From an uncultured archaeon (lineage in GTDB: Archaea; Aenigmatarchaeota; Aenigmatarchaeia; PWEA01; JAGHBM01), in the NCBI GenBank assembly GCA_964640225.1, contig CAZXFI010000001.1, positions 119,321 through 183,320 of the forward strand: a DNA stretch of 64,000 bases, in the 5' to 3' direction. How positions within the stretch are numbered: position 1 is the stretch's first letter; each line of letters begins with the position of its first letter. The notes beneath the pieces were generated by a model. That model made no database searches, was not told the DNA's origin, and worked only from the letters and a program-made list of their open reading frames with translations. The position numbers and the translations under genes were made by a program. Shown in pieces: positions 18,897 to 63,804 of the stretch.

Positions 18897-18908
18897 ATGG
18901 GTGTTTTT

Positions 18909-19325
18909 ATGTACGAATTCATAGAAGACCTGACCTCAGACGTGATGTTCGTGGCCGAGGCCCCGGACCTAGCTTCGCTTCTAGAGGAGTCCGCCAGGGC
19001 CCTTTTTGACGTGGTTTGCAACCGCAAGGCCGTAGAACCAAAAGAGAATGTACGGATTGTAGTAGAAGCCGAAACTCCTGAAAAACTCCTGTACGAATGG
19101 TTGTCACGGCTGCTCACCGAGTCTGATTCCAACGAGCTTTTCTTTTCAGAATTTCAAGTCTCTGTTTCGGAGCAGGATGGCAAGCTCGTGGCCAGGGGCG
19201 AGGCTTTGGGAGAACCTTACTCACAAGAGAAAAGCGGAACAGTGGTCAAGGGCATAACCCTGTACGGCTTTGAGGTGGAAAAAACAGAAAAGGGCTACAG
19301 GGCAAGGGTGGCCTGCGATATCTGA
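18909..19325 (+). CDS. Archease (RtcB activator)
   Basis: MYEFIEDLTSDVMFVAEAP...LFDVV matches the archease family. The start was taken at the internal Met of the track ORF (18897). Confidence 0.8.
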   Translation: MYEFIEDLTSDVMFVAEAPDLASLLEESARALFDVVCNRKAVEPKENVRIVVEAETPEKLLYEWLSRLLTESDSNELFFSEFQVSVSEQDGKLVARGEALGEPYSQEKSGTVVKGITLYGFEVEKTEKGYRARVACDI

Positions 19326-19332
19326 TGTTAAT

Positions 19333-20289
19333 TCAAATCACACCGCTTTCATCAATCGAGAACAGGTTATGTTCCGAATCCAGTGAGGCTTCGACGCACA
19401 AAGGAACTGTTATCATCGGGTCAGTATGACCGATATCCACTTCAGTTAGTACAGGAATGTCAATATTTTTCACGTGTTTGGTAATTATTTTCCGAAGTTT
19501 TATCCTTTCTTCTCTGCTGTATCCGTACCCTCTTCCAACTACAAGCCCCTTTATTACGTCAAAAACACCGTGATTTATCAAGTCCGTTATCTCAGAATCA
19601 ACGTACTCCAAAGGCTCTCCTTTCGTGAAATCCTGACCCTCCGGTATATCCAGAAAGAGTATTTTGTTTTTGTAATTAAGTTCAAATTTTGTTCCATTTA
19701 ATTTAATGATGGACGGTAGGCATCCTCCGACTATCTGACCTTTGACCGAACCGGGATTGACCCATACGAATCCGTTATTTGTATTCATTTTTCTTGGCCT
19801 CTTGGTATCTTCTTTTCTGGACCAATCTAAGTTCTCGTCTGTCCACTCCCTTGAAGGTTCTATCCTCCCGACTTCCTGTGAAAGACATCTCAAAAAGTAT
19901 TTCATTGTATAATCAATCGGTCTCGGGAATTCTCCGAACTGGGTCATTGCCGCCGGACCGTAAAATGTCACAAGACCTGCCATTTTATTGAAAGCGTGAT
20001 GAAGTATTGTTATATCAGAATATCCGCAAAATATTTTTGGGTTCTTTCTGATAATACCGTAATCTATACGATTGACAAGCTCATTGGAGGAAAGTCCTCC
20101 TATATTACATACTATAGCTTTGACTTCGGTATCCGAGAAACAATCATGGATATCATCCAGTCTGTTCTGAATTGTCCCTGCTCTTCCGTCTAGAAACGTT
20201 CTTGTAGTTTTAAATTCCCTCGTCTTAAAGCCAAATTCCTTGATAGCTTTTTCGGCATTGTCGATTCTATGCTGAAAAAGTCCGCCCAA
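19333..20289 (-). CDS. LD-carboxypeptidase (peptidase S66, MccF/LdcA family)
   Basis: 318 aa with the S66 fold signature (GYSDITILHHAF, GHTDPMITVP). AT-rich. Confidence 0.7.
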   Translation of the reverse strand: MGGLFQHRIDNAEKAIKEFGFKTREFKTTRTFLDGRAGTIQNRLDDIHDCFSDTEVKAIVCNIGGLSSNELVNRIDYGIIRKNPKIFCGYSDITILHHAFNKMAGLVTFYGPAAMTQFGEFPRPIDYTMKYFLRCLSQEVGRIEPSREWTDENLDWSRKEDTKRPRKMNTNNGFVWVNPGSVKGQIVGGCLPSIIKLNGTKFELNYKNKILFLDIPEGQDFTKGEPLEYVDSEITDLINHGVFDVIKGLVVGRGYGYSREERIKLRKIITKHVKNIDIPVLTEVDIGHTDPMITVPLCVEASLDSEHNLFSIDESGVI

Positions 20290-20396
20290 GCCACTGGAAG
20301 GTGCTATAAAAGCAACAGTATCTCCTTTTTCAAGTTTTTTTGCCTTTAAAATTCAAACCACCTCCATAGATAAATAGAATAAACAAATTAATAACA

Positions 20397-21233
20397 TTAT
20401 TTTTTACCGATTACAAACAAATTGTTTCCTCTTCCAGAGGCATCCTCATTTAAAATCAATTCCTTCTCTATTGAAAAAATTTTTAGGTAGTTTTTGTTTG
20501 AAAGCAGGGTATCTATTTTTTTCGTGGAACCCTTCAATCTGGTCTCTTCGTATCCGGGATATAAAGACACAGGAAACCCGTACACTGATACGTTTTTTAA
20601 CCCGTTCTTTCTATAAATCTCTTTAATTCCGCTTGGTGTAAAAAATTTTATTTCAGGCATATCGTCGCAGAAAACTCCTGTCGATGTTTTAGATATTTTA
20701 TCTGAAGCGGAAATATTACCCTGAGTAAGATTAAAAAAAACTCCATGATACTTGTTAGGTACAACAGATATCAAGTAGCCTCCTTTCTTTAGAACTCTAT
20801 ACATCTCCGAGACAGCCTTCTCTGGGTTACATAAGAATCCCAAAACATTGTATAAATTTATCACGAGATCATATTCGCAATTTCTCTGGTCTATCATATT
20901 TTCAATATTTCCTATCACAATATCTGACCTTTCGTCCAATTTATTATGTTTTATCTTATCTTTTGCCACTCCTGTCATATCTTCCGAAATATCGTATAGA
21001 ATACCTTCGGAATTTTTAAAATTCTCCAAAATTTTAATAAACCACCTTCCCGTCCCGCCACCAGCGTCCAAAAATTTAAATTTTGATGTTTTTCTCATAT
21101 CTTCTAAAGCAAATCTATTTAGCAGGTACCATAGAAGTTTATCAGAAAGATTCCAATATATCTGTTTTTCCACTAGGTCATATTCAGTACACTTTTTTTT
21201 AAAATATTCTATAACATTTTTTTCTGAATACAT
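20397..21233 (-). CDS. Class I SAM-dependent methyltransferase
   Basis: Motif I FLDAGGGTGRWF, with motif II/post-I LYDISEDM. The start was moved to the internal ATG to avoid a 74-nt overlap with the upstream gene. Confidence 0.65.
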   Translation of the reverse strand: MYSEKNVIEYFKKKCTEYDLVEKQIYWNLSDKLLWYLLNRFALEDMRKTSKFKFLDAGGGTGRWFIKILENFKNSEGILYDISEDMTGVAKDKIKHNKLDERSDIVIGNIENMIDQRNCEYDLVINLYNVLGFLCNPEKAVSEMYRVLKKGGYLISVVPNKYHGVFFNLTQGNISASDKISKTSTGVFCDDMPEIKFFTPSGIKEIYRKNGLKNVSVYGFPVSLYPGYEETRLKGSTKKIDTLLSNKNYLKIFSIEKELILNEDASGRGNNLFVIGKK

Positions 21234-21240
21234 AAACCGG

Positions 21241-22377
21241 TTACACCCCCAATTCTTTATGTCCTCTTGGAAATGATGAAACAGACCATATAAAATTAAG
21301 TTTGAGCAAACCATGTATCAGTCTTTCCCAACCCATACCGAATCCTGAAGTTGTTTCGTAGTTGGGCAAAGTTCTGGATATCAAATAGGGTTCATAATCT
21401 TTTCTAGGTAGATTGAAAATTTCAGCTTTATACTCCAGCTCATTTACGGTTCTTACCCTCCGGCCACTGCCAATTATTTCCCTGTATCCCGGCCATATAA
21501 CATCCGCATTCTGGGAAGTTTTTGGGTCTGAACCGTCTACAACAGCGTGATAAAATGAAACCTCTAGTAAAGGGAACTCCTTAATGGCTACGATAGACCC
21601 TAAAATTTCTGTAATCTTTACTTCTTCCCACGGACCAAAATATTTTAAAGTGAATTTTCTGTATTTTTCGTTTCCCGTATGAGTATACAATAAATCCAAT
21701 GCTTCCTTGAAAGTTATTTCCTTTATTTTATTCTTCTTCGACATTGACTTCAATTCAAGCAAATCTTCGTCTGTAATGAAATACAAAAGATCGGGAGAAT
21801 TTTTCTTTATACAGTCCTTTAGAAATTTAGACAAGAGACCCCACAGAATATCCATATTCTGGGACTGATTTACATTGCCTTCATATTCTATGTGATGGAA
21901 TTCAGACAAATGCGTGGAATCTGCCCTTTCCTTTCTAAATGAATTGTAGATGGAAAAAACGTGGCTCAAATTTTTCTGAAGAAGAGTCAGCTCTAGATAA
22001 ATTTGGGAAGATTCGGAAAGAAATACCTTATCGGGCAAGTCGAACCAGTTGAGAGTTATTGGGCAAGTGTCTGTAGTATAATCTATTTTCTCCTTACCAT
22101 AAACAGCGCCTGGAGACGATATCATTCTGGTTGTCAGCGGAAGTGGTACAAATGTAGCACCCATTCCATCGAAATACTCTACCGACGAGATGAACAATCT
22201 ACTGTTTATTCTGGATAAGTGTGACCACACCCCATTTTCTGGAAAATCTTTTACTCTTTTCAGAACTTCGCTTGAGGCCGGATACGAGTAATTTGAAACA
22301 TTCTTTAGAGAATTAAAGATTTTATTTCCCCTGTAAGATATGGTACCGTCATTGTTTGCGGTGTACGGGCCTAACAT
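21241..22377 (-). CDS. Class IIb aaRS catalytic-core paralog (AsnRS/AspRS/AsnA-like) lacking an N-terminal anticodon-binding domain
   Basis: 378 aa. Motif 2-like FRKERADSTHLSEFHHIEYE and motif 3-like TSGFGMGWERL are present. Only about 50 aa precede motif 1, so there is no OB-fold. AT-rich. Confidence 0.6.
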   Translation of the reverse strand: MLGPYTANNDGTISYRGNKIFNSLKNVSNYSYPASSEVLKRVKDFPENGVWSHLSRINSRLFISSVEYFDGMGATFVPLPLTTRMISSPGAVYGKEKIDYTTDTCPITLNWFDLPDKVFLSESSQIYLELTLLQKNLSHVFSIYNSFRKERADSTHLSEFHHIEYEGNVNQSQNMDILWGLLSKFLKDCIKKNSPDLLYFITDEDLLELKSMSKKNKIKEITFKEALDLLYTHTGNEKYRKFTLKYFGPWEEVKITEILGSIVAIKEFPLLEVSFYHAVVDGSDPKTSQNADVIWPGYREIIGSGRRVRTVNELEYKAEIFNLPRKDYEPYLISRTLPNYETTSGFGMGWERLIHGLLKLNFIWSVSSFPRGHKELGV

Positions 22378-22397
22378 ACAATGTGTTAATTTTTATA

Positions 22398-23624
22398 CTA
22401 TAAATTTTCAATTTCAGATATTATGGCGCTTTCTGGAATAGTCTTGCTACTGTTTCCTTTTCTAAAAACGACAGAATTAGTCTCCAATTCCTTATCGCCA
22501 ACTATAATCATTCTGGGAACTCCTATATCATCATATGTCTTGATTTTTTCTCCCATAGTTTTTTTTCTGTCTTCCCAAACGACATCAAATCCGTTGTTTT
22601 TCATTTCTTGGTGTATCTCTCCGCATTTTTTTTCCTGGGCAATTGTATTGTTGACGGAAAACACTACAACGTCATAAGGCACTAATTCATTTGGCCATTT
22701 TATACCAAATCCGCTTCTGTTTTGTTCAGCAACTGAATGTAATATTCTTGAGACACCTAAAGCATAAGTTCCGAGATGAAAGTAATTTTTGTTGAAATTG
22801 CTATCTTGAAACTGCGCGTTAAATTTAAGGGAATACCTGTCGTTCTCTTTCATTATACATCCAAGTTCTATTCCCTGAGATATGATAAATTTTTCGTTGC
22901 ATCCATCACAAAAGTTTTCGTCCCTGTAAATAATTTTCTTGCCGCAGTCGCAAGAACCTATTTTAGTATCTCCCTCGTCAGAAATCGATAGGAATGTTGT
23001 ATAACCATCCCTTTTTTCAAGTGCTATTGTCTCCAAATCCAGACGAGAGAAAATTCTGTCGAATGTTTCAAAAAATAACGAAGAACTTTCGTCCAAACCT
23101 TCCTTACTTGAATCTATACTATAAGATTCCAGCATTCTAAAAACATTTGTCCTAACTATACCATGCTTCGCCCCCTTATCATCTCTAAATTTGTCGGCAA
23201 TCTGATAAAAACGGGTCGGCAACTGTTTATAAGAATGTATTAAATTTTTAGCAATCGTCGTGGCAACTTCTTCGTTTGTGGGAGATAGCACATATCTGGA
23301 ATCTCCTATGCCATATCTACCTTTAGTAAAAATCATCGATTTATTGAATTGTTCGTCTCTGCCGCTTTTTTCCCAGTAGAAATAAGGTTGCAAAGGCGGT
23401 AAATATATTTCCTGTATATCACTCTTTCCCATCTCTTCCCTCATGATTTTTTCCAGTTTGTTGATTATTTTTTGCCCGATTGGAAAATACGAATACATTT
23501 TATGGTCATCGAACGGGTAATTTATAATTGAAATTTTTTCTAAAAGTTCGTATGTAGACGGCTCTTTGATATCGTTTATTTTCTTCTCTGACCAGAGCAT
23601 TCTCGATGCCCTCATATTTACCAT
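22398..23624 (-). CDS. Compact bacterial-type prolyl-tRNA synthetase-like protein (class IIa, no INS editing domain)
   Basis: 408 aa. There is strong collinearity with the bacterial ProRS catalytic domain (LSPTNEEV..., YKQLPTRFYQIADKFRDD, VRTNVFRMLESYS) and a class IIa anticodon-binding C-terminus. AT-rich. Confidence 0.65.
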   Translation of the reverse strand: MVNMRASRMLWSEKKINDIKEPSTYELLEKISIINYPFDDHKMYSYFPIGQKIINKLEKIMREEMGKSDIQEIYLPPLQPYFYWEKSGRDEQFNKSMIFTKGRYGIGDSRYVLSPTNEEVATTIAKNLIHSYKQLPTRFYQIADKFRDDKGAKHGIVRTNVFRMLESYSIDSSKEGLDESSSLFFETFDRIFSRLDLETIALEKRDGYTTFLSISDEGDTKIGSCDCGKKIIYRDENFCDGCNEKFIISQGIELGCIMKENDRYSLKFNAQFQDSNFNKNYFHLGTYALGVSRILHSVAEQNRSGFGIKWPNELVPYDVVVFSVNNTIAQEKKCGEIHQEMKNNGFDVVWEDRKKTMGEKIKTYDDIGVPRMIIVGDKELETNSVVFRKGNSSKTIPESAIISEIENL

Positions 23625-23739
23625 ATAAAAATGATTACAAAATCTATTTATTCTTTAGAAATACTTTATTAGTATCGCGTGTGCCCGGCATTGAGATGCA
23701 AACGGGCGCAGGCTTTTTTCTGCGCTTAGTTTCATGTAG

Positions 23740-25194
23740 GTGATGTTTATGAAAGACAAGATGGAAAAAATCAGCGAAGTCAAGTGGAGAATCCCCAAGA
23801 GCTTCAGGAAGGAAATGCGGACCGACTGCATGGTTTACGGGAACGAATACGTAATAAAGCAGGTGGAGGAGGACGCGCTCCGCCAGCTGACAAACGTGGC
23901 CTGCCTTCCCGGGGTAGTTGAGCCCGTGATAGGTGCCCCGGACATACACTTCGGCTACGGCCTTCCCATGGGGGCCGTGGGGGCCTTTGACAAGGACGAG
24001 GGAGTTATATCTGCCGGATGCACGGGGTTTGACATAAACTGCGGCATTCGCATGATTAAAACAAACCTCACCAAAGATGAGGTCCGGAAAAGGATACGCA
24101 TACTTATAGACGTCCTGTTCCGCAACGTGCCATGCGGAGTCGGGGCAAAGGGAAAGCTCCGCCTCAATTACGACCAGCTGGAAGAGGTGCTTACCCGGGG
24201 TGCCGGGTGGGCCCTGGACAACGGCTACGCGGTAGAGGAGGACCTGGAGCACATGGAGGAGAACGGGTGCATGGAAGGGGCCGACCCGGAGAAGGTAAGC
24301 GACTCCGCCATGAAAAGGGGGCTACCGCAACTGGGAACCTTGGGCGCGGGAAACCACTTCCTTGAGGTACAGGCCGTGGACGAAATCTTCGACGAAGAGA
24401 CTGCCAGGGCCTTCGGCCTGGAAAATCCCGGGCAAGTCGTTATTATGCTCCACTGCGGCTCGCGCGGCTTCGGCCACCAGGTGGCCTCGGACTACCTGAA
24501 GGTTCACGAGAAGGCCGCCAAAAAGTACAAAATCTGGCTGCCGGACCCCCAGCTCGTGTGCGCCCCCACCACCTCAGAGGAGGGCCAGGACTACTATTCC
24601 GCTATGAAATGCGCCGTGAACTACGCCTTCACCAACAGGACCGTGATGACCAAGTGGATAAGGGACTCATTTGAGGAGGTTTTTGACCGGGAGTGGGAGG
24701 ACATGGACATGCGCACGATTTACGACGTGTGCCACAATATATGCAAGAAAGAGAAGCACAAAATTGAGGGCAAGGAAAAGGAGCTTTACGTTCACAGGAA
24801 GGGTTCAACCCGCGCACTTCCTCCGGGCCACCCGCTGAACCCGAAGTCCTACGCAAAAACGGGACACCCGGTGCTTATAGCGGGCTCAATGGGCACCGCA
24901 TCCTACATACTCGTGGGAAGCAACAAGTCCGAGGAAAGTTTTTACAGCACGTGCCACGGCGCGGGCCGCGTCATGTCAAGGCACCAGGCCCTCAAAACGT
25001 TTTTCGGGGAAAAGGTAAAGCAGGAGCTCATGGACAAGCAGAAGATTTACGCAAAGGCCACCCACGGCAAGGTCCTCTCCGAGGAGGCCCCCGGCGTTTA
25101 CAAGAACATAGACCAGGTGATAGAGTCTGTGCACCAAGCCGGAATCTCCCTGAAGGTGGCCAGGATGGTACCCTTGGGAGTGGCCAAGGGATAA
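23740..25194 (+). CDS. rtcB: tRNA-splicing ligase RtcB
   Basis: 484 aa with the conserved RtcB metal and GTP-binding motifs (GFDINCG, HCGSRGFGHQV, NHF). Confidence 0.9.
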   Translation: MMFMKDKMEKISEVKWRIPKSFRKEMRTDCMVYGNEYVIKQVEEDALRQLTNVACLPGVVEPVIGAPDIHFGYGLPMGAVGAFDKDEGVISAGCTGFDINCGIRMIKTNLTKDEVRKRIRILIDVLFRNVPCGVGAKGKLRLNYDQLEEVLTRGAGWALDNGYAVEEDLEHMEENGCMEGADPEKVSDSAMKRGLPQLGTLGAGNHFLEVQAVDEIFDEETARAFGLENPGQVVIMLHCGSRGFGHQVASDYLKVHEKAAKKYKIWLPDPQLVCAPTTSEEGQDYYSAMKCAVNYAFTNRTVMTKWIRDSFEEVFDREWEDMDMRTIYDVCHNICKKEKHKIEGKEKELYVHRKGSTRALPPGHPLNPKSYAKTGHPVLIAGSMGTASYILVGSNKSEESFYSTCHGAGRVMSRHQALKTFFGEKVKQELMDKQKIYAKATHGKVLSEEAPGVYKNIDQVIESVHQAGISLKVARMVPLGVAKG

Positions 25195-25428: not shown

Positions 25429-26769
25429 ATGAATAGTCCGTGGTTTGAAAAAAAATATTCCAAATTAGTTGAAAATGTAATTCCATTAATATTAAAAGTG
25501 AAAAATAAAGATTATAGAGTTTTTTTGGATTCAAGTACAGGAGCTTGGGTTTATTCCTCTTTGAATAAAAATAAAGACAATTTTACTGAAGCTGAAAAGG
25601 AATTTTTGTATAAAAGAGGTATGGTAAAAGATAAAGAAGGTAATTATGTAGAAATAGAAAGACCTAAAATACAAAAATGCTCTCCTTCCAGCTTTGTACT
25701 GAACCTTACTTTAAATTGTAACTTAAGTTGCAAATATTGTTTTGCTGAAGCTTCAACCGATTTTAAAAAACCGAATATTATTAAAGAAGATGTAATAAAA
25801 AGAACCGTGGATGAGATTTCAAAGGTACCGCATAAAAGAGTTAGGTTAGAATTTCAAGGAGGGGAGCCGCTAATCGCAAAGGATAGTCTCTTTTTTGCAT
25901 TAAATTACGCAAAAGAAAAAATAAAAAGCAAATCTATAACGTTCGGAATGGAAACTAATGGTACATTAATTGATGAAGAAACTGTTAAATTATTAGAAAA
26001 ATTTAATTTTACAATTGGTATAAGTATAGATGGTCCTGAGAAAATTCATGACCTAGCCCGTGTATACCCCAACGGAAAGGGTAGCTTTCAAGAAACAGAA
26101 GCTGGATTAGATTTACTTATAAAATCAAAAAAACTCAAAGAAAAACTAGGTTCTATAGTAGTAGTAGGTAAACATAATTGTAATAGACCAAAGGAAGTTG
26201 TTGAATATTTTAATAAAAAAAATATTACATTTAAACCCATACCCGCTAATCCTGCCGGTAGAGCAACAGAAAATATTGTAGCTACTTCAGAAGAATATTA
26301 TAACTTTTTTATAAAAGCGTATGAATATAGTGAAAAATTAAAATTAAAAAATATAATGTCTTATGTTTTCAATATGAATGTTTATACTCCCTTAAGGGAC
26401 TATATATGCCTAAGGTCTCCTTGTGGTATGGGTAATGAGATAATATCAATAAATCCCGATGGTTCTGTAAGACCTTGTGATGGATTTAAATCAAACCCTG
26501 AATTTGAAATTGGTAATATTTTAAATGAAGACCTCTCTGATATATACTCTAAAGAAAAAACCAAAAAATTATCTTCTAGAAGTTTTAAAGATATAGAAAA
26601 ATGCTCAAAATGTAATTTCAAAGGAATGTGTGGTCCTTGTGCGTATGCTTCTTATGGTCTTTTTGGAAGTATATACAGAGAAGATCCAAAATGTCTAGCC
26701 AAAAGAAAAATTTTCATATATTTAATGAAAAGATATATAGAAAGGTCAGAAAATAAAAAACGTGATTAA
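25429..26769 (+). CDS. Radical SAM enzyme with C-terminal SPASM domain and an N-terminal RRE-like extension of about 95 aa
   Basis: CNLSCKYC (CxxxCxxC) at about residue 100. C-terminal Cys cluster CSKCNFKGMCGPCAYAS. AT-rich. Confidence 0.75.
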   Translation: MNSPWFEKKYSKLVENVIPLILKVKNKDYRVFLDSSTGAWVYSSLNKNKDNFTEAEKEFLYKRGMVKDKEGNYVEIERPKIQKCSPSSFVLNLTLNCNLSCKYCFAEASTDFKKPNIIKEDVIKRTVDEISKVPHKRVRLEFQGGEPLIAKDSLFFALNYAKEKIKSKSITFGMETNGTLIDEETVKLLEKFNFTIGISIDGPEKIHDLARVYPNGKGSFQETEAGLDLLIKSKKLKEKLGSIVVVGKHNCNRPKEVVEYFNKKNITFKPIPANPAGRATENIVATSEEYYNFFIKAYEYSEKLKLKNIMSYVFNMNVYTPLRDYICLRSPCGMGNEIISINPDGSVRPCDGFKSNPEFEIGNILNEDLSDIYSKEKTKKLSSRSFKDIEKCSKCNFKGMCGPCAYASYGLFGSIYREDPKCLAKRKIFIYLMKRYIERSENKKRD

Positions 26770-27333
26770 ATGAAGAACACTATTATTTTTGATATGAACT
26801 CTACACTTGATAATGATTCAGAAATGGAGATAAATATAATATCAGAAATCATAAAAAATAAAAATCCAATGAAAATATATGTTGAATTGGTTAGGAACGA
26901 TTTAAAGCATCCCGACTGGGACTACAAGGAAATAGTTGAAAAAACCTTTGAAAAATACGTTGAAGACCCTCAAAAATCCGCTGAATTTTTCATAAAAAAC
27001 AAGAAAGTGCGTGTGAGAAAATTCTTTGTTGACTTTATTAATGAAAATTTTAAAAAATACAGATTTTTTGTGGTGTCAAAAGAAAACGAGGAATTGGTGA
27101 AAGCAAAGCTTAAAGAGGCCGATTTACTGGACAAATTTGAGGGTGTATTTAGAATACAGAAGCCTTCTGTGGAAGGACTTGAAAAAATACTTTTGAAAAA
27201 CAATATAAAACCAAGTGAATGTACGTTCGTTGGGGATGACCCGCTGTTGGATTTATTGCCTGCCAAAGCCCTCGGGATGAAAACCGTTCTCGTAAATTCT
27301 TTCGTTGATGAAACATGGAAAATAGAAAAATAA
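26770..27333 (+). CDS. HAD-superfamily hydrolase-like protein
   Basis: C-terminal FVGDDPLLDLLPAKALGMKTVLV resembles HAD motifs III/IV. 187 aa. Confidence 0.4.
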   Translation: MKNTIIFDMNSTLDNDSEMEINIISEIIKNKNPMKIYVELVRNDLKHPDWDYKEIVEKTFEKYVEDPQKSAEFFIKNKKVRVRKFFVDFINENFKKYRFFVVSKENEELVKAKLKEADLLDKFEGVFRIQKPSVEGLEKILLKNNIKPSECTFVGDDPLLDLLPAKALGMKTVLVNSFVDETWKIEK

Positions 27334-27887
27334 TAATTGAAAAAATCTATACTAATAAATTAAATACATTTATTAAAGGAGATATTTTTTCTGGAAAAAC
27401 TTATTTTTTATCTGAAATACTAGATTATATTCAAGATAAAAAAGAAAGGGTTTTTTATATTGATACTACAACGGAGGAAAATGAAAAATCTCTGATTAAC
27501 CAGAGGGAATTAAAATCCTTAAAAATAACTGATAAAATAAAAGAAAGTGAAATTCTCAACAACATTAACTCAAACTTTATAGACATTTCATATAATCTAG
27601 AAAGAAATTTGGAGTTTTTAGAAAAGGGTGATAATGAAAATGCAGAAAAATATAGAAAAAAACAAAAAACTATTTTAAACAATTTAATTTCAATTTTTAA
27701 TAATCAAGAAAATTTATTTCTATTGTTTGATGAAGTAGATATATCACCATATGATTTATCAAATAAAAATGTGTATATCGCTACTGGGCATAAGGAAACG
27801 GAAAATGAAAAATTTGATATAACATTGGAGCTAGAAAAAACGAAAATAGTTAATGTAAACCAAAATGGTTTGAAGAATCTCGCCTGA
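27315..27887 (+). CDS. Small P-loop NTPase
   Basis: Walker A GDIFSGKT and Walker B LFLLFDEVD. 190 aa. Confidence 0.4.
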   Translation: MENRKIIIEKIYTNKLNTFIKGDIFSGKTYFLSEILDYIQDKKERVFYIDTTTEENEKSLINQRELKSLKITDKIKESEILNNINSNFIDISYNLERNLEFLEKGDNENAEKYRKKQKTILNNLISIFNNQENLFLLFDEVDISPYDLSNKNVYIATGHKETENEKFDITLELEKTKIVNVNQNGLKNLA

Positions 27888-28027
27888 AGTCCTCATCCGT
27901 TGCCGGCCTCATCACTAATCAGATGGTCTTTTGCACGTAGAACCAGTTTTGGCGTCCCCCTAAACCACGATGCCTCTAGATAAAATCAGTTTCTGCTAAG
28001 GTTTAGAGTCTTAAAATCAATTTAGAA

Positions 28028-28790
28028 CTATATCTCTATTTCCAAACCGTCATAAGCCACTTCAAAATTGCCCATTTTCCTGACTTTCTTTCGCAAATCC
28101 GCGTGCCTTTGGTGGTGATTCAAGTGGGTGAGATATGTTTTCCCGGCCCCTATTTCCTTCGCGAATTTAACAGAATTTTTCACCGAGAAATGCCCTTTTG
28201 AATTTCCTTTGTAAAAATCCTTTGTGGAATCTATTATCAGTATGTCCGATTTTTCTATCTTATTCCTTTGCTTCACGCCGCAACAATCTGGGGCGTAGAC
28301 AACTTTCTTTCCTTTCACCTTGAATATGAAACCCAATGTAAAAATTGAATGCTCCGCGGCAAAATAATCTATTTCCAGACCGCCTATCCTCAGGTTTCTC
28401 CTGATGGGCTTGAACTTCAAGACTTTGTCAAACGTCCAGGGATATTTCCCCTTCACCACCCGGAATATCCTTCTCTTTGTATACAAATCAATCCTTTTTT
28501 TTGTTTATTTTATATATCTCATTAAGGTCGTCCAGCCCTCCTATGTGGTCTTCGTGTGCATGCGTTATAAGAATGGCGTCTATCCTGGTCAGGTTTTCCT
28601 TGAGGGCCTGCTGGTGAAAATCCGGAGAAACGTCAACCAGTATGTTCTTTCCTTTGTTCTTTATCAGCAGGGAAGGCCGGGTTCTTGTGTCTTTTCTGTC
28701 CTTGCTTTTGCAAACCCTGCATTTGCACCCTATTCTTGGCAACGGCCATGCAGAACTTGTTCCCAGGAATTTTATTTTGGCCATATTCAA
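28028..28790 (-). pseudogene. Metallo-beta-lactamase-fold hydrolase interrupted by a frameshift in a T8 homopolymer
   Basis: ORF 28488-28790 carries THAHEDHIGG (HxHxDH). ORF 28028-28486 carries the C-terminal MBL motifs (H...DCCG). The frames abut at a run of 8 T at about 28494-28501. Confidence 0.55.
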
Positions 28791-28834
28791 TTATTTTATA
28801 CCAATAGTATAAAAACAGTCTCTTCAACGGAAAA

Positions 28835-29266
28835 TTAGTATATTTTCTCAATTCTACAATTACCAAGATAACTCATCAAACCAGAATAATTATCAGTATA
28901 GACATATGATTGTGGCGGAGTAAAATTAAATTCCGACTTTAATTTGCTCAAGGGTATTCCCTGCTCTAATTTATAAAGGTGATTTATTGGAAAAGCGTAT
29001 TTAGATACTTTTAAACCATTATTAAATTCATAATTTCCTATTCCATTTTCTGGAATCTTTCCCGGATATTTAATTGGGTTTCCAATCTCAATAATATATT
29101 GTAATTCACATATCGGTTGTGTAACGTATATTAAAATTTGTTTTATCGGGTCTTTGGGTACATACTTTCTAAATTCATATGTTTTTTTTCTTGTTGATAT
29201 TAAATTTGCAAACTTGGGTTTCAAACTTAAAATTATTTTCCTTCTTTTTTGTTCAATCATTTTCAA
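28835..29266 (-). CDS. ASCH-domain (PUA-like) protein
   Basis: ILSLKPKFANLISTRKKTYEFRKY matches the ASCH core. Confidence 0.4.
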   Translation of the reverse strand: MKMIEQKRRKIILSLKPKFANLISTRKKTYEFRKYVPKDPIKQILIYVTQPICELQYIIEIGNPIKYPGKIPENGIGNYEFNNGLKVSKYAFPINHLYKLEQGIPLSKLKSEFNFTPPQSYVYTDNYSGLMSYLGNCRIEKIY

Positions 29267-30290
29267 GAACCTCCATAAGGTAATATATTGAATAACTTCT
29301 AAAAAGTTTATATGACTCTTCCAACCATGAAATGGTTTCCATAAAAATTTTCTTCAACCCGTCCTCCCCAAATTTCTTTTTAAACTCACTATAATTAACT
29401 AAATATTGTGGGAGATACTTATATGCATTCTTTTTAACATACAAAGATTTAGATAGTTTAGCACCAGACCAATCTAGAATTAGAGGTGCGTAAACTATTT
29501 GAGGTAACTTATAGGCAGGTATTCCTAAAAGTGATGCTGACCTATAAAGTAGCTGTTCCTGATAGTAACCTGAAAAATCACTTCCAGTTACCCTTATCCA
29601 CTCAAAAGATTTTTTTGAATTTTGATTATCTTTACTATAAACAATAGCTCTTATAAGATTTCTCAAAGGAGTATTATATTCAAACCTCTCTGAATTCTTG
29701 TCGAAAAAAGTTTCAAAAAAACCATGCTTAGGACAATAAGATCTTATTTTATTCTCAAAATATTTGTTTTTAATTCCTCTTTTATCTGTTAAACCACACT
29801 TCGGACAAGCTACTCTCATTCTTAGTAAACCAGTTTGGGGTTGAAGGATCGGGCCAATAGTTTCTCTATGTTTAACTATATTTTTTAAAATCCCAGGTAT
29901 CTCTGATTGAGAATTAAATTTACTTTGTCTTCTAATAGAATAATCAATTCCGGTAAAACCTTTTAACAGCTTTAATAACTCAAAGTATTCTTCAAGATAA
30001 ATATCTACAACTTTATCTCCTCTTAGACTAACTTGATAATACATTCCGTTAACTTTCTTTAATTTGGAGGGAGCCGTGTCTACAATCTCAAAAAATATTT
30101 CAGGTTCAATTTTTGTATCTTCTAAAAATTTCTTTCCTAGAGCGTATGCTAAGCAAAACACTATTAAAGTCCCGAAGTGAGGGGAAGAATTTGGTTGAGC
30201 ACCTATACTTATTCTTACTCTTTTTTTAGAAATATTTTTAGCTAAATACTTTACATAATCTTTCTTAAAAACATATGAACCTGCACCAAG
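29253..30290 (-). CDS. Class I aaRS catalytic-domain paralog (archaeal/eukaryal TrpRS/TyrRS-like). It has no anticodon-binding domain, and its start codon is uncertain.
   Basis: HIGH-region GAQPNSSPHFGTLIVF resembles the archaeal TrpRS signature G.GPSS...H.GHLIPF. KMSKS-like GAKLSKS lies about 55 aa from the C-terminus. A Zn-ribbon-like CPKCG...CPKHG is present. The track ORF starts at an internal GTG (30161). The aaRS-like frame continues upstream to a stop near 30330 with no ATG, GTG or TTG. Confidence 0.5.
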   Translation of the reverse strand, partial: LGAGSYVFKKDYVKYLAKNISKKRVRISIGAQPNSSPHFGTLIVFCLAYALGKKFLEDTKIEPEIFFEIVDTAPSKLKKVNGMYYQVSLRGDKVVDIYLEEYFELLKLLKGFTGIDYSIRRQSKFNSQSEIPGILKNIVKHRETIGPILQPQTGLLRMRVACPKCGLTDKRGIKNKYFENKIRSYCPKHGFFETFFDKNSERFEYNTPLRNLIRAIVYSKDNQNSKKSFEWIRVTGSDFSGYYQEQLLYRSASLLGIPAYKLPQIVYAPLILDWSGAKLSKSLYVKKNAYKYLPQYLVNYSEFKKKFGEDGLKKIFMETISWLEESYKLFRSYSIYYLMEVLEND

Positions 30291-30426: not shown

Positions 30427-31554
30427 TTAATCCTTCAGCACGAACTTGTCCAGCTTCTTCCTTGCCTTCTCCCTCTTTTCCTGGTGGCCCTTAAGGAAGG
30501 CGTTTATCCTTTCCGTGAGCTCCTTCTTGCAGTCCCCGCAAACCCTTTTGCCTGACCTGCACTCTTTCCGTATCTCTTCAAGCTTTTCATCGTCCTGCTC
30601 AAAAAAGAAGTAGAAATACTTGTAAATGGAGCAAACCTCGTAGTTGCCTCCCTTTTCCTTCTGCTCCTTGAGGCTTCCCCTGCCTCCCGTGAAGGCGTTC
30701 CACACCTTGCTTTTCACGACATCGGGCTTGTCCGTGGTGAAAATGCAGGAGCCGGGCTCCGAGGCCGACATCTTACCTTCCCCGGAAAGGCTTGGTATGA
30801 ACTTGGAGTGTATTATTGAGGGCTTGTAGTACCCGAGCTTCGGCAGGACATCCCTGGCCACCCTGAAGTGCGGGTCCTGGTCTATTGCTAGCGGTATTAA
30901 ACAGGGCACGTTTTTGCCTTTCTTAACAGAGGGTAGGAAAGCGGGAACCGCCTGCATGCTGGTGAAGAATATCTGTCCCACGTTTGACTCGTTTTTGAAG
31001 CCAAATACAGCCTTGGCCGTGGAAAAGGTTATTTTCTTGGCCACGCGAACAGCCTGTGGGTATAGCTCCCCGCAGTAGTCCATATCGGAAAATATGAAAG
31101 TCTTCCCCTCTTTGAAGCCCAGAGCTATCAGGTCCAGGGCGTTCTCGTAAGCAAACCTATTGGCCTCTTCCGGCTCCAGCTTGTCGTTGAACAGGAACTT
31201 CTCGTCGTCCGTAAGCTGGAACCACAGCTCCGTGTCAAACTTGTCCTGAAGCCATTTTGTGAAAATCCAGGGCATTAGATGGCCCAGATGCGTGTGCCCG
31301 GAAGGCCCGCGGCCAGTGTAAAGGTAGAATTCCTTTCCCTTCTCGTGCTGGTCAAGAATCCAGTCAAAATCCCTGTGGCAGAAGAAAATACCCCTTCTCA
31401 GGAAAGGGTGAAGTTCGCCTGTGTGCTTTTCAAGCCTCTGAAGAAGCTTCTTTGAAATGGGTTTGGTGCCAAACTCCTTTATAAGCCTGTCATAATCCAG
31501 CTTCCCCGAGACTTTCCACGGGGTGACTTTCATTTTGCTAGCTTCCGTGCTCAT
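30427..31554 (-). CDS. trpS: Tryptophanyl-tRNA synthetase (archaeal/eukaryal type)
   Basis: VTPWKVSG..., GRGPSGHTHLGHLMPW, KMSASEPGS. 375 aa and GC-rich. Confidence 0.85.
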   Translation of the reverse strand: MSTEASKMKVTPWKVSGKLDYDRLIKEFGTKPISKKLLQRLEKHTGELHPFLRRGIFFCHRDFDWILDQHEKGKEFYLYTGRGPSGHTHLGHLMPWIFTKWLQDKFDTELWFQLTDDEKFLFNDKLEPEEANRFAYENALDLIALGFKEGKTFIFSDMDYCGELYPQAVRVAKKITFSTAKAVFGFKNESNVGQIFFTSMQAVPAFLPSVKKGKNVPCLIPLAIDQDPHFRVARDVLPKLGYYKPSIIHSKFIPSLSGEGKMSASEPGSCIFTTDKPDVVKSKVWNAFTGGRGSLKEQKEKGGNYEVCSIYKYFYFFFEQDDEKLEEIRKECRSGKRVCGDCKKELTERINAFLKGHQEKREKARKKLDKFVLKD

Positions 31555-57834: not shown

Positions 57835-58212
57835 GCGGTGTGTTGGGTTAGCCCGTCTTCTGTAAGCCCATCACCATCCGAGATGGCTCACCTGAAGGCT
57901 TTTTGGCATTCGTCTGCGCCCCGGCGCTCGGCCGGTTTAGCGACCTACCCGCCTCTCTCTCATCATCAAGGCCTACTTGGTCTTGCACCACACGGGCCGG
58001 TCCGTTTCACCCGCCGCGCCAAACATCAATTAGTATCATCTTTTAACAGCGAAGCGGTACCGTTTCTGATACCGACCTGAGCATCTCTGCCCAGGAGCTT
58101 GCGCCCCCGTGATTCGTCGGTGGACGGAGCTTCCTCGGTTTTTAGAAAACCCCATGCTTTGAACAAAAGGTTTTCATCCGTATAACCGGTAGCCAATTCT
58201 CCAACACACCAA
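57835..58212 (-). ncRNA. rnpB: RNase P RNA (type A)
   Basis: The minus-strand transcript contains GGGUGAAACGG, GUGCAAGACCAAGUAGG (compare CCGGAGCAAGGCCAAAUAGGG), a J18/2-like ACAGAAGACGGGCUAACC, and GAGGAAGCUCCG in place of AGGAAAGUCCGG. P1 pairs 5' GGUGUGUUGG (58201-58210) with 3' CCAACACACC (57837-57846). There is a P3 hairpin GAAAACC...GGUUUUC. Confidence 0.6.
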
Positions 58213-58746: not shown

Positions 58747-59708
58747 GATTTAAACCGAAACCTCACGGTCCCGGTCCTTGAAACCTGGATACAGGAACCC
58801 CAAAAATGGCGGTTAGTACTCGTGGACTGAACTGGTCGCCGAAGCTTCCGGCTTACATCCCGAGCCTATCAAACCCGTCGTGTACGGGAACCTAGGTTGT
58901 CTCTTTTTGGGAGCCGCTTCGAGCTTAGATGCCTTCAGCTCTTATCGGCGTAGGGCGTAGCTACTCGGCAGTGCCCTGCCGGACAACCGATACACCAGAG
59001 GCCCCAGGAGGATGTTCCTTTCGTACTGATCCTCCTTTCCCCTCAGACAACCAACACTCCTAGTAGATATTGACCAAACTGGCTCACGCCGTTCTGAACC
59101 CAGCTAACGTACCTTTTTGATGAGTGAACACCTCTACCCTTGGCCGCTTCCAGAACCCCCTCCCGCTTTAAGCGGAAGATGATTTTTCGTAAACGTTTTG
59201 CACGTTTACCTGTGCAAAAGGTTTTGCTGCACAGCCAGGAGAAGGTGAGCCGACAACGATGTAACAACACGCGGCGTCAATAGGGGCTTTCGGCCGCTAC
59301 GATCCGGTTATCCCTGAGGTAGCTTTTCTGACATCCCTGAGCCTTAAATCGACCGACGCAACGCATTGCGTCAAGTTATCAATAAGCTTCAGGATTTCGC
59401 TAGGTCAGGCTTTCGCCTCTGAATCCCTCGATGTTCAGGATTCAGTCAAGCTAGCTTTTGCCCTTACACTCTATTTCGGATTTCTGACCCGAATGAGCTA
59501 ACCTTTGAGCGCCTTTGATACCATTTCAAAGGCGTACCGCCCCAGTCAAACTGTCCACCTGATGTTGTCCAGGTTTCCCTGTAAGCAATACGTTTTCGAA
59601 AGAGTAGTGTTACATTGGCGACTACACACAAACTTGCGTCTGTGCTTTAACGTCTCCTACTTACGCTATACAATCAAAACCATATCACAGCATCAAGCTA
59701 CAGTAAAG

Positions 59709-60372
59709 CTAACCGCTGAAAGAAAGAGCAATCCTCATCCTTTCTTTTGTAGTAAGATGAGGCGGACAATAACCAAGATTTTTGAAAAGCATAATTTTAG
59801 ACAAATGTTTTTCATTTAAAAAACCTATTTTTTCCATCCATTTATTCAACATTTCCTTGCCGTAAATCCTTATTCTATAGTCTCTGAAACCTCTTTGATA
59901 GGCTTCTTCGCTGGAAACTTTGAAGCCAAGGTAATTTAACTTTTTCAAGGCAAAATCATGGATTATTTCATTGCTTGTGAAGAATTCAATTCTTGGCTCA
60001 TTGTGAATTCCTTTTCTGTTTTTCTTAAAGGTGACCGTAAAATCAGCATCTGCCAGACCTCTTAAAAAGTGATTTCTTTTAGTTTTGATTTACTTCCTAC
60101 CGGCAAACCTAAACCGATTTTCCTTTCCACCGCATCTTTAGAATTCAAATGAACTACTATTGTGTTTTCGTTTTTTCTGAAATAGACACATGGGTCCCTT
60201 CTGTAAAGTTTCTTCAATATTTGAGGTACCAAAATTCCATAGAATTTTTTGTCATCAATTGAATGCCCAGAGTATATTACTCTGTACACATTGTTTTTCC
60301 TGTCCAATTGCAAGGATCCGTCTCCTAAATGGAGTCCCGTCTCGTACGCTAAAAGTTCTTTTTAATTTTCAT
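59709..60372 (-). pseudogene. Intron-encoded LAGLIDADG homing endonuclease, disrupted by two +/-1 frameshifts
   Basis: Frame A reads MKIKKNF*. Frame B reads KELLAYETGLHLGDGS(L)QLDRKNNVYRVIYSGHS...KLKEITF* and contains LAGLIDADG motif 1. Frame C reads ...NHFLRGLADADFTVTFKKNRKGIHNEP...LKKLNYLGF...EMLNKWMEKIGFL...SFSG* and contains motif 2. The frame switches fall in A/T homopolymers at about 60359-60366 and 60064-60090. Confidence 0.6.
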
Positions 60373-60394
60373 GGTTTTATTGTTCGTGAAGCGG
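59721..60394 (-). other. Archaeal rRNA intron in 23S domain IV (H69-H71 region, about E. coli 1950). Boundaries are approximate.
   Basis: An AT-rich block lies between exon sequence GGGACGAAAG (60395-60404, rc) and UCAGCGGUUAGCUUUACUGUAGC (rc of 59701-59720). Conserved 23S sequence resumes on both sides. Confidence 0.6.
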
Positions 60395-63688: not shown

Positions 63689-63804
63689 GGGCCGGTAGAT
63701 CAGTGGAAGATCGCCTGCTTTGCAATACGAAATAAGAATTTCGATGTTTCGTTTCGTAACGAAACAGCAGGAGGCCATGGGTTCAAATCCCATCCGGTCC
63801 ACCA
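63689..63804 (+). tRNA. tRNA-Ala(UGC) with a 41-nt canonical-position intron (63725-63765). The 3' CCA is encoded.
   Basis: Acceptor stem GGGCCGG/CCGGUCC includes the G3:U70 alanine identity pair. D-arm GAUC AGUGGAA GAUC. Anticodon stem CCUGC/GCAGG with loop UUUGCA|intron|A. T-arm AUGGG UUCAAAU CCCAU. The discriminator is A, followed by CCA. Confidence 0.8.

Follow-up and report, generated by a model that had tools for sequence, protein, structure and literature searches.

A horizontally acquired four-gene island in a DPANN archaeon resembles a minimal form of the agrocin 84 gene cluster

A 64,000-nucleotide stretch of contig CAZXFI010000001.1 from an uncultured archaeon (the whole analysed stretch is called the window, and all coordinates of the locus are window positions) contains a compact group of four genes, here called island A. 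The four proteins are a serine peptidase of family S66, an S-adenosylmethionine (SAM)-dependent methyltransferase (MT), a truncated relative of asparaginyl-tRNA synthetase (AsnRS) named AsnL, and a relative of prolyl-tRNA synthetase (ProRS) named ProL. The recurring gene group built around AsnL is referred to as the cassette. A preliminary description of the window had reported four co-oriented, AT-rich genes, and this was confirmed: a check of the open reading frames (ORFs) found four of them on the minus strand at 19333-23624, and the GC content of the island is 0.36 vs 0.49-0.50 in the flanks (0.51 in the archease and 0.57 in the RtcB gene). The gene order is ProL, AsnL, MT, S66 with gaps of 7-44 nt, and the four genes form one operon. 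The features of the locus are as follows.

18897-19325: archease gene, flanking island A
19329-23675: island A, an insertion of ~4.35 kb extending from the archease stop codon (19325) to the conserved rtcB leader/promoter
19333-20352, minus strand: S66 serine peptidase, assigned to the MccF clade; 339 aa from ATT 20352, 318 aa from TTG 20289
20335-20356, minus strand: start-site anomaly of the S66 gene; TGA stop at 20355-20353 followed by ATT 20352, TTG 20356-20354 one frame off
20397-21233, minus strand: MT, UbiE/COQ5-type class I SAM-dependent methyltransferase, 278 aa (Pfam Methyltransf_25, Methyltransf_11 and Ubie_methyltran)
21241-22377, minus strand: AsnL, AsnRS-derived class IIb catalytic core resembling AgnA of the agrocin 84 cluster, 378 aa (tRNA-synt_2 only)
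22398-23615, minus strand: ProL, compact bacterial-type ProRS paralog, 405 aa, first gene of the operon (tRNA-synt_2b and HGTP_anticodon)
23749-25194: RtcB gene, flanking island A

Archease and RtcB are partners in tRNA splicing and ligation whose genes are normally adjacent in this lineage. In the window they are split by the island, and the rtcB leader has remained intact. A sister genome (L092), whose RtcB is 83% identical to that of the window, has the same gene order (DUF2341 protein, T2SSF, T2SSF, KaiC-like protein, T2SSE, archease, RtcB, tryptophanyl-tRNA synthetase (TrpRS)), with archease and rtcB separated by just 112 bp and no island A. Alignment of the two spacers placed the island junctions at ~19329 and ~23665-23675. 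A separately assembled Logan contig, of which 19,098 bases were retrieved, was 100% identical to the window. This identity, together with boundaries falling exactly within the intergenic spacer of L092, excludes the possibility of an assembly chimera. The drop in GC content, the empty site in L092 and the identical Logan contig indicate that island A is a genuine horizontal acquisition. The insertion is recent and occupies a site that is empty in the DPANN sister genome, and the cassette of the window is a mosaic of lineages.

The window also carries archaeal large subunit (LSU) rRNA and archaeal RNase P RNA. The best named relatives of its RtcB are proteins of Diapherotrites (72% identity) and Aenigmatarchaeota (68%), indicating that the host is a DPANN archaeon with a GC content of ~50%; a Methanosarcinales host was excluded on the same grounds. 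One of the two related loci found in 'Methanosarcinales' metagenome-assembled genomes (L027) is AT-rich throughout and resembles a DPANN contig.

In AsnL, residue 52 onward aligns to positions 130-448 of the AsnRS model (Pfam/NCBIfam), and the domain search detected no tRNA_anti-codon/oligonucleotide-binding (OB)-fold domain (PF01336). As judged from its sequence, AsnL thus lacks the canonical AsnRS architecture and consists of a core without the N-terminal OB fold. It scored 125 bits with the curated AsnRS model, whose cut-off is 414. The translation contains the motifs FRKERADSTHLSEFHHIEYE (motif 2) and GFGMGWERL (motif 3). AsnL retains motif 3, the Arg and His of motif 2 and an AsnRS-type pocket (Glu164, Arg307, Leu128). 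From its motif-2 loop three arginines and one residue have been lost, and the first Gln of QSxQ is changed to Glu. All motifs for ATP binding and amino-acid activation are kept, under strong purifying selection, and the family as a whole is highly conserved (71% mean column identity). By sequence and by fold the nearest solved structure is an AsnRS, that of P. horikoshii (1x54; 96 bits, Foldseek E 1e-18), vs 36 bits for AS-AR structures; the best AsnA model gave 91.5 bits against a cut-off of 389, and EpmA models matched weakly (E 1.8e-5). An AlphaFold2 model (pLDDT 75) showed an AsnRS-like core preceded by an N-terminus of two short strands and helices; model and Foldseek search gave no functional hint for the N-terminal 50 residues.

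The MT gene begins 7 nt past the AsnL stop codon. The 278-aa gene model follows the homologues and the Logan gene call and replaces a 305-aa ORF that overlapped AsnL. At most loci the MT gene lies directly downstream of AsnL. Among its closest relatives of solved structure are CmoM, a carboxyl O-methyltransferase, and LahSB, also a methyltransferase, and the Pfam families of MT are the same as those of AgnB1 of the agrocin 84 cluster. A full-length homologue (30% identical), flanked by insertion sequences, is encoded on the Streptomyces tendae plasmid NZ_CP043960.1 (L095, 11956-12825). Genes for a non-ribosomal peptide synthetase, MbtH and an enduracididine hydroxylase lie within ~5-12 kb of it, no AsnL, S66 or ProL homologue was found near it, and this homologue was therefore uninformative.

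The S66 protein contains both the N- and the C-terminal Peptidase_S66 domains (Pfam, E 2.6e-30 and 8.3e-23). Compared with solved structures it scored 166 bits with MccF of B. anthracis and 138 bits with MccF of E. coli (range for MccF 134-166), vs 42-44 bits with structures of the murein LD-carboxypeptidase LdcA; on these scores it belongs to the MccF clade and not to LdcA. Residues were mapped on E. coli MccF from plasmid MccC7-H22, whose numbering is used here. The window protein has Ser118, His311 and the adenine-stacking Trp186. The first two are also kept in AgnC5 and are invariant in 54/54 S66 proteins of other cassettes. Trp186, which in MccF stacks the adenine (PMC8323819), is kept in the window protein, in AgnC5 of the agrocin 84 cluster and in 52 of the 54 cassette proteins. 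The acidic position of the triad is occupied by Glu in 45 and by Asp in 9-10 of these proteins. Residues N220 and K247 of E. coli MccF, which we take to read the acidic side chain of the substrate, correspond to positions showing no conservation in the S66 proteins; the aminoacyl specificity probably differs from that of MccF.

The beginning of the S66 gene is unusual. The reading frame is open upstream of the annotated TTG 20289 and encodes there, as seen in three-frame translations, the canonical N-terminus ILKAKKLEKGDTVAFIAPSS, including the stretch …KKLEKGDTVAFIAPSS. Because the expected N-terminus is encoded by this upstream segment, translation probably starts at ATT 20352. A possible alternative is TTG 20356 as start codon, combined with slippage by one base within the A7 run (20335-20341). 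A Shine-Dalgarno-like box (GGAGGTG) is located just upstream of the start region.

The 405-aa model of ProL agrees with the NCBI product (P0121). ProL scored 279 bits with the curated ProRS models (cut-off 558). The match with the bacterial-type ProRS falls in two stretches, indicating that the INS editing domain is absent; a Cys4 mini-insert is present and the class IIa anticodon-binding domain is retained. Eight close relatives are known (43-54% identity). The contigs of three of these were read: P0123 and P0124 adjoin AsnL, S66 and MT genes, and P0129 is two genes away from an S66 gene only. Three signatures are altered relative to ProRS (PTHEE to PT[N/D]EE, FRDE..RPR..REF to FRDD..AKHGIVR[T/S]N[V/I]F, and GH to GC in GIELGC). 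The changes are conserved within the ProL clade, which is distinct both from canonical ProRS and from 'type B', the far more degenerate ProRS-like proteins found in other DPANN cassettes. There is no other ProRS, nor an AsnRS, in the 64-kb window.

All four family assignments of the preliminary description held on closer analysis, namely the MccF-type S66 peptidase, the class I SAM methyltransferase (UbiE/Methyltransf_25 type in Pfam), the 378-aa class IIb core without OB fold, with the motifs that had been quoted for it, and the compact bacterial-type ProRS-like protein. Its placement of AsnL among AsnA/AS-AR-type paralogs must be abandoned for an AsnRS-derived, AgnA-like protein, and the AsnA score given above shows that AsnL is not a plain AsnA. 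The length of ProL is 405 and not 408 aa, and it is a divergent paralog from a small clade, not an ordinary ProRS. Both synthetase-like enzymes had been described as not needing tRNA recognition. This applies to AsnL and not to ProL: because ProL has kept its anticodon-binding domain, just one of the two proteins is clearly tRNA-independent.

Homologues of AsnL of about the same length (~378 aa, 55-67% identical) number in the hundreds, mostly in Woese-, Pace- and Nanoarchaeota. When one genome per GTDB species was scanned (185,579 species genomes), 97 AsnL loci were found, in ~97/185,579 species genomes. The carriers are DPANN archaea, members of the candidate phyla radiation (CPR/Patescibacteria, 44-48% identity) and the haloarchaea Natrinema gari, N. 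altunense and Haloarcula regularis. A hidden Markov model search of the full library (E ≤ 1e-30) yielded just 47 clusters at 50% identity, showing a compact and patchily distributed family as would fit an accessory element. The preliminary description knew of no such module in archaea. The cassette is not unique to this host, which belongs to the DPANN archaea, but common among ultra-small organisms of the DPANN and CPR groups.

For the analysis of gene neighbourhoods, ORFs were called around the AsnL loci and clustered. Among the 55 loci with at least 3.5 kb of sequence downstream of AsnL, MT was present in 42, S66 in 44, both in 35, and a ProRS-like gene in 23. Where both flanks were available, S66 was found within 6 kb of AsnL at 39/47 loci, and S66 or a HIT-family gene at 42/47. 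Co-conservation of the block in other genomes, which the preliminary description had named as a check, is thus strong. The genes occur in the orders AsnL-MT-S66, AsnL-ProL-MT-S66 and AsnL-S66-ProL-MT, the last at the loci of P0123 and P0124. This variation of gene order among the loci points to functional linkage rather than inherited synteny. In one protein (P0366, 667 aa; locus L098, 5620-7623) AsnL and MT are naturally fused. The operon of P0366 (L098, 1161-9554, all on the same strand) contains an S66 peptidase gene and a second methyltransferase gene, along with genes for a ThiF-like adenylyltransferase, for an aromatic amino-acid lyase or aminomutase and for a 519-aa protein. The whole resembles a larger biosynthetic cluster.

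The distribution and insertion of the cassette are those of a mobile accessory element: it is present in few species genomes, spread over DPANN, CPR and haloarchaea, mosaic, and in the window inserted at a site that is empty in L092. Carriage by plasmids or phages was rejected, AsnL being absent from PLSDB and essentially absent from INPHARED. The defence models of PADLOC gave no match for S66, AsnL or ProL, and only generic matches for methyltransferases and radical SAM proteins.

A dedicated tRNA gene was not consistently present in the 60 related loci scanned, nor was one found near island A in the window. A tRNA-Asn(GTT) gene precedes AsnL by ~180 nt in two related CPR genomes (L072 and L078, 9734-9808) and by ~1.7 kb in L050 (8204-8277). 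These could mark an integration site or be a functional hint.

Many cassettes also encode a variable, additional aminoacyl-tRNA synthetase (aaRS)-like partner. This may come from one or two ProRS-like genes, or be a LysRS-like protein of compact size that has an OB fold (275 bits, cut-off 468), an archaeal-type LeuRS-like protein without the CP1 editing domain, an additional full-length AsnRS-like protein or, in CPR loci, a weak HisRS-like core; a further family looked like an AlaRS core by eye and had no family match. The ProL, LysRS-like and LeuRS-like partners retain tRNA-binding domains. The order AsnL-MT-LeuRS-like in the DPANN loci L011, L015 and L081 mirrors that of agnA-agnB1-agnB2 in the agrocin 84 cluster. 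Recurrent neighbours of other kinds are HIT proteins (16 loci), Acetyltransf_3 GNAT proteins, a pyridoxal phosphate (PLP)-dependent enzyme resembling diaminopimelate (DAP) decarboxylase, S51 peptidases (5 loci) and ATP-grasp ligases.

Some individual loci deserve mention. In Natrinema gari and N. altunense (L056 and L057, 6038-14042) the genes are MT, LeuRS (948 aa, on the opposite strand), AsnL, DrrA, DrrB and S66, so that an ATP-binding cassette (ABC) exporter, DrrA/DrrB, is placed between AsnL and S66; the GC content of AsnL is 0.54 vs 0.59 for the whole ~21-kb locus. A complete 615-kb genome (OZ246397.1; L071, 5424-11137) has two eukaryote/archaeon-type ProRS paralogs, one canonical and one divergent, located near each other with a shorter ProRS-like ORF in between; S66 and AsnL follow them. 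Duplication of ProRS in so small a genome suggests that one copy serves immunity or biosynthesis. In P0407 (527 aa) an N-terminal GNAT domain (RimJ/RimL-like, by eye) is fused to an AgnA-like truncated AsnRS core with a DSMQ motif, also identified by eye; the arrangement is reminiscent of an acetyl-immunity domain of the MccE2 type attached to a synthetase.

A protein search of PLSDB with S66 retrieved agnC5 ('MccF-like protein') on pAgK84, the agrocin 84 plasmid of Rhizobium rhizogenes K84. In the annotation of pAgK84, agnA ('Agrocin84-synthetase') is followed directly by the gene of the SAM-dependent methyltransferase AgnB1; agnB2 and the agnC operon, including agnC5, are also annotated. This cluster, which is absent from the preliminary description, is the decisive precedent for island A. 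The pairwise comparisons were as follows.

AsnL vs AgnA: 28% over 313 aa, E 2e-24
S66 vs AgnC5: 32% over 342 aa, E 5e-60
MT vs AgnB1: 24% over 163 aa, E 7e-4 (weak)

AgnA has been described as a truncated AsnRS without anticodon-binding domain (PMC4392301), and its best solved relative is the AsnRS 1x54, as for AsnL. Relative to AsnRS, AsnL and AgnA share the one-residue deletion in the motif-2 loop with loss of arginines, and in both the first Gln of QSxQ has become acidic (Glu in AsnL, Asp in AgnA). AgnA has been proposed, from its sequence, to join a pentanamide precursor to AMP via a phosphoramide bond; the agn cluster further encodes a resistant aaRS (AgnB2, a LeuRS), the remotely ProRS-like AgnC1 and the SAM enzymes AgnB1, AgnC3 and AgnC7 (PMC8323819). 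Up to the 2021 review, agn-like clusters had been found solely in Rhizobiales and Actinobacteria, the presumed immunity gene of the actinobacterial ones being a MetRS (PMC8323819). A 2025 review lists the origin of the P-N bond of agrocin as unknown (PMC12596934). Island A thus shares with agn a truncated AsnRS, an adjacent SAM methyltransferase, an MccF-like S66 peptidase, an extra aaRS paralog and a mobile character. It differs in having four genes instead of 17, in lacking the dioxygenase, short-chain dehydrogenase/reductase and radical SAM enzymes for the pentanamide, in having a ProRS-like protein where AgnB2 is a LeuRS, and in the hosts (archaea/CPR vs Rhizobiales/Actinobacteria). An amidohydrolase-like family of the cassette loci (f6) had no significant similarity to AgnC4, and a radical SAM protein encoded in the window beyond rtcB was rejected as counterpart of AgnC7, the similarity being only that of radical SAM proteins in general.

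The microcin C system (mccABCDEF) offers a second comparison. Island A resembles it in the MccF-type S66 peptidase with Ser, His and Trp186, and in a tailoring enzyme of the class I methyltransferase fold (MccD). In other cassettes, at the level of protein families only, the likeness extends to HIT (MccH family), Acetyltransf_3 GNAT (MccE2) and PLP decarboxylase (MccE1) proteins. In contrast to microcin C, the window island has no ThiF/E1-like MccB, no ORF for an MccA precursor and no exporter of the major facilitator superfamily. The domain search found no ThiF domain in the island A proteins, and there was no obvious mini-ORF in the 5' leader; an MccA-like mini-ORF or MccB within island A was ruled out since the 7-44 nt spacers leave no room and ThiF is missing.

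AS-AR and AsnA are likewise AsnRS/AspRS-derived cores that adenylate an amino acid and have no anticodon-binding domain. AsnL differs from them in being closer to AsnRS (96 vs 36 bits), at least 80 residues longer, with a conserved N-terminal segment and another gene context. As a divergent aaRS of full architecture within the cluster, known here from sequence, ProL resembles the self-resistance synthetases (AgnB2 LeuRS, AbmK SerRS and the MetRS of actinobacterial agn-like clusters), whereas many of the DPANN 'type B' ProRS-like partners look too degenerate for synthetases. Phosmidosine of Streptomyces carries an O-methyl group on its phosphorus. It is a natural prolyl-AMP mimic with a P-N bond (PMC11229370; PMC6429109). 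In principle, this combination of features could result from the joint action of a ProRS-like protein, an AgnA-like protein and a methyltransferase, the analogy being at the level of the compound alone.

The genes present, their homologies and catalytic residues, their co-conservation, the AsnL::MT fusion and the horizontal insertion, all described above, are direct observations. With moderate confidence, and by analogy, we favour the interpretation that island A is a minimal relative of the agrocin 84 cluster, which would make a stable aminoacyl-adenylate mimic and give self-immunity to it. The candidate module for aminoacyl-nucleotide biosynthesis and immunity suggested in the preliminary description is thereby supported as a reading, from homology and analogy. 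The chemistry, product, target and direction (offence or defence) of the cassette, as deduced from homology and gene context, would be the following. AsnL, having lost tRNA recognition, would consume ATP and link a nucleotide to an acyl or amide substrate that resembles an amino acid, as proposed for AgnA. The product would be a stable, non-hydrolysable mimic of an aminoacyl-adenylate, most plausibly an N-acyl phosphoramidate as in TM84 and processed microcin C. MT would tailor this product or its precursor; the AsnL::MT fusion suggests that the two enzymes act on the same molecule. S66 would cleave the aminoacyl-nucleotide amide bond of toxin accumulating in the cytoplasm of the producer and thus confer self-immunity. 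ProL could be a toxin-insensitive synthetase like AgnB2 that keeps up tRNA charging; the toxin would then be directed at ProRS and would mimic Pro-AMP in the way phosmidosine does. Alternatively, ProL could be an AgnC1-like biosynthetic partner selecting the amino acid.

ProRS-, LysRS- and LeuRS-like partners alternating around a constant core fit a modular family with different targets. A more tentative extension, which could easily prove wrong, is a minimal, modular, 'programmable' aaRS-inhibitor system common to the ultra-small, episymbiotic DPANN archaea and CPR bacteria and to a small number of haloarchaea. In such a system the truncated AsnRS would be the enzyme, long sought, that forms the P-N bond, the fused or adjacent methyltransferase would tailor the warhead, the MccF-type or HIT hydrolase would provide immunity, and the choice of the synthetase to be targeted or protected would depend on an exchangeable aaRS paralog (of Pro, Lys, Leu, His or Ala type).

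Several observations weigh against the agn-like interpretation. Sequence identities to the agn proteins are low, and the likeness to AgnA, AgnB1 and AgnC1 is weak. AsnL-AgnA scores (73-112 bits) are only marginally above those of AsnL with AsnRS (68-94), and AgnA itself is only marginally nearer to AsnL than to AsnRS (71-86). MT resembles AgnB1 or AgnC3 at the level of fold only and has no detectable pairwise similarity to MccD. A ProL-family profile compared with AgnC1 (hhalign) gave E 0.028 with a probability of 1.8%, the two being collinear at motif 2 and at the junction of the anticodon domain; the BLASTP E value was 0.26. Island A of the window lacks an exporter (AgnG) as well as genes for the uptake moiety (glucose-2-phosphate) and for nucleoside tailoring (3'-deoxyarabinose) (AgnD/E/F, AgnC2/C6/C7). 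In its S66 protein Glu243 is replaced by Asp, and the gene has a non-canonical start or a frameshift. A tandem Lrp/AsnC-like regulator, divergently oriented, is found upstream of AsnL in 8-11 DPANN loci, and canonical aaRS genes are often near the cassettes, as would fit housekeeping functions in amino-acid metabolism or translation. Finally, the biochemistry of AgnA is undemonstrated and the agrocin pathway experimentally unknown (PMC8323819; PMC12596934).

Other explanations were considered, each of which accounts for less of the gene content and distribution than the agn-like interpretation. The island could serve resistance only, S66 hydrolysing and MT modifying exogenous aminoacyl-adenylate mimics, with ProL as a drug-insensitive synthetase and AsnL as a binder, decoy or modifier. 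Stand-alone MccF homologues do confer resistance to microcin C (PMC8323819), HIT and GNAT genes lie beside some cassettes, and both the tRNA-binding domains kept by ProL and by the LysRS- and LeuRS-like partners and the lack of an exporter in the window would be in line with protection. However, AsnL is the constant core of the cassette, its activation motifs are intact under purifying selection, it is fused to MT in P0366, and AgnA, its sole relative of characterised context, is annotated as a synthetase (a sequence-based proposal); a purely protective role appears unlikely. Still less probable is a function in amino-acid metabolism, with AsnL as an AsnA/AS-AR-like asparagine synthetase or amide ligase under Lrp/AsnC control and the peptidase and MT engaged in peptide salvage or unrelated. 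The divergent tandem regulators of at least eight DPANN loci, comparable to the asnC-asnA arrangement of E. coli, the AsnRS-type side-chain pocket of AsnL (Glu164, Arg307, Leu128) and the S51 (aspartyl-dipeptidase family) genes of five loci speak for such a role. The AsnA and AS-AR scores given above speak against it, and it leaves unexplained the MT and MccF-type partners, the fusion, the variable aaRS paralogs and the patchy, mobile distribution.

Modification of a macromolecule is considered about as improbable as a metabolic role: AsnL would aminoacylate a protein or an RNA nucleoside in the manner of EpmA/PoxA or GluQRS, MT would methylate the adduct and S66 remove it. Truncated aaRS paralogs with such roles exist, EpmA models match AsnL (if weakly), the relatives of MT include CmoM, which forms a methyl ester on tRNA, and tRNA-Asn genes are found directly upstream of AsnL in two loci and farther upstream in a third. 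Yet neither a conserved target gene nor a dedicated tRNA was seen in the 60 loci scanned, and none near the window island, MccF-type enzymes act on small aminoacyl-nucleotides, and the agn parallel is much closer. Least credible of all, and hardly to be expected, is that the island carries passenger housekeeping genes, a minimal AsnRS and ProRS of the donor together with two neighbours without joint function. Database labels would agree with this, since NCBI and JGI name the relatives 'asparagine--tRNA ligase' or 'prolyl-tRNA synthetase', and unusual aaRS genes are frequent in the reduced genomes of DPANN archaea. But AsnL occurs in just ~97 species genomes and is without the anticodon domain, by which AsnRS chiefly reads tRNA identity; L034, L035, L042 and L045 have full-length AsnRS and AspRS genes in addition to it, its haloarchaeal carriers need no extra AsnRS, and the active-site signatures of ProL are altered.

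Literature searches found no paper in which MccF or a truncated AsnRS is connected with archaea or with DPANN or CPR organisms, and full-text searches found none on an aminoacyl-nucleotide system in Archaea, CPR or DPANN; within the literature searched, the cassette is previously unreported in Archaea or CPR/DPANN. Whatever its function, it represents a clear case of gene-cluster transfer across domains with a recent insertion at a site empty in a DPANN sister. If the agn-like interpretation is correct, the range of agn-like clusters would widen beyond Rhizobiales and Actinobacteria, and genome-reduced symbionts would have a candidate way to compete with or manipulate their hosts. The origin of the phosphoramidate bond of agrocin 84, which is unknown (PMC8323819; PMC12596934), becomes a testable question with a three- or four-gene cassette. 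The cassette, the AsnL::MT fusion and the cultured carriers (Natrinema gari, N. altunense, Haloarcula regularis) provide a far simpler system than the 17-gene agn cluster. Should the variable aaRS mark the target, the family would amount to a library, provided by nature, of compounds that inhibit ProRS, LysRS, LeuRS and further synthetases. The 'programmable' system, if real, would be the first aaRS-directed antibiotic system in Archaea and could act as a weapon or a control device in symbiont-host interactions.

Other features of the window were noted. A second AT-rich insertion (island B, ~25429-30200, GC 0.31) lies between rtcB and the native TrpRS gene and is missing from L092. Its genes include those of a radical SAM/SPASM maturase-like protein, of a HAD hydrolase and of a P-loop-like protein of 190 aa. 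Two more ORFs of island B, of 143 aa and 302 aa (the latter with a KLSKS-like motif), had no family match. A metallo-beta-lactamase-fold gene of island B is split into two ORFs (28028-28486 and 28488-28790) and is probably a pseudogene. The TrpRS gene (30427-31554) was excluded as a component of the system, having the native GC content (0.51) and being syntenic in L092.

The RNA features of the window are the following. The rtcB leader contains a hairpin, GGGCGCAGGC-TTTTTT-CTGCGCTT (23690-23745), just within the island junction. The related genomes L092 and L094 have it too, and it may serve as a promoter element of rtcB or as a regulatory RNA. The archaeal RNase P RNA gene is at 57838-58209. 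The LSU rRNA match (58793-62721) spans 3929 nt vs 2987 nt of the model, and the surplus of ~940 nt may represent one or more introns or an insertion. A 113-nt tRNA at 63689-63801, found by Rfam and missed by ARAGORN, probably contains an intron.

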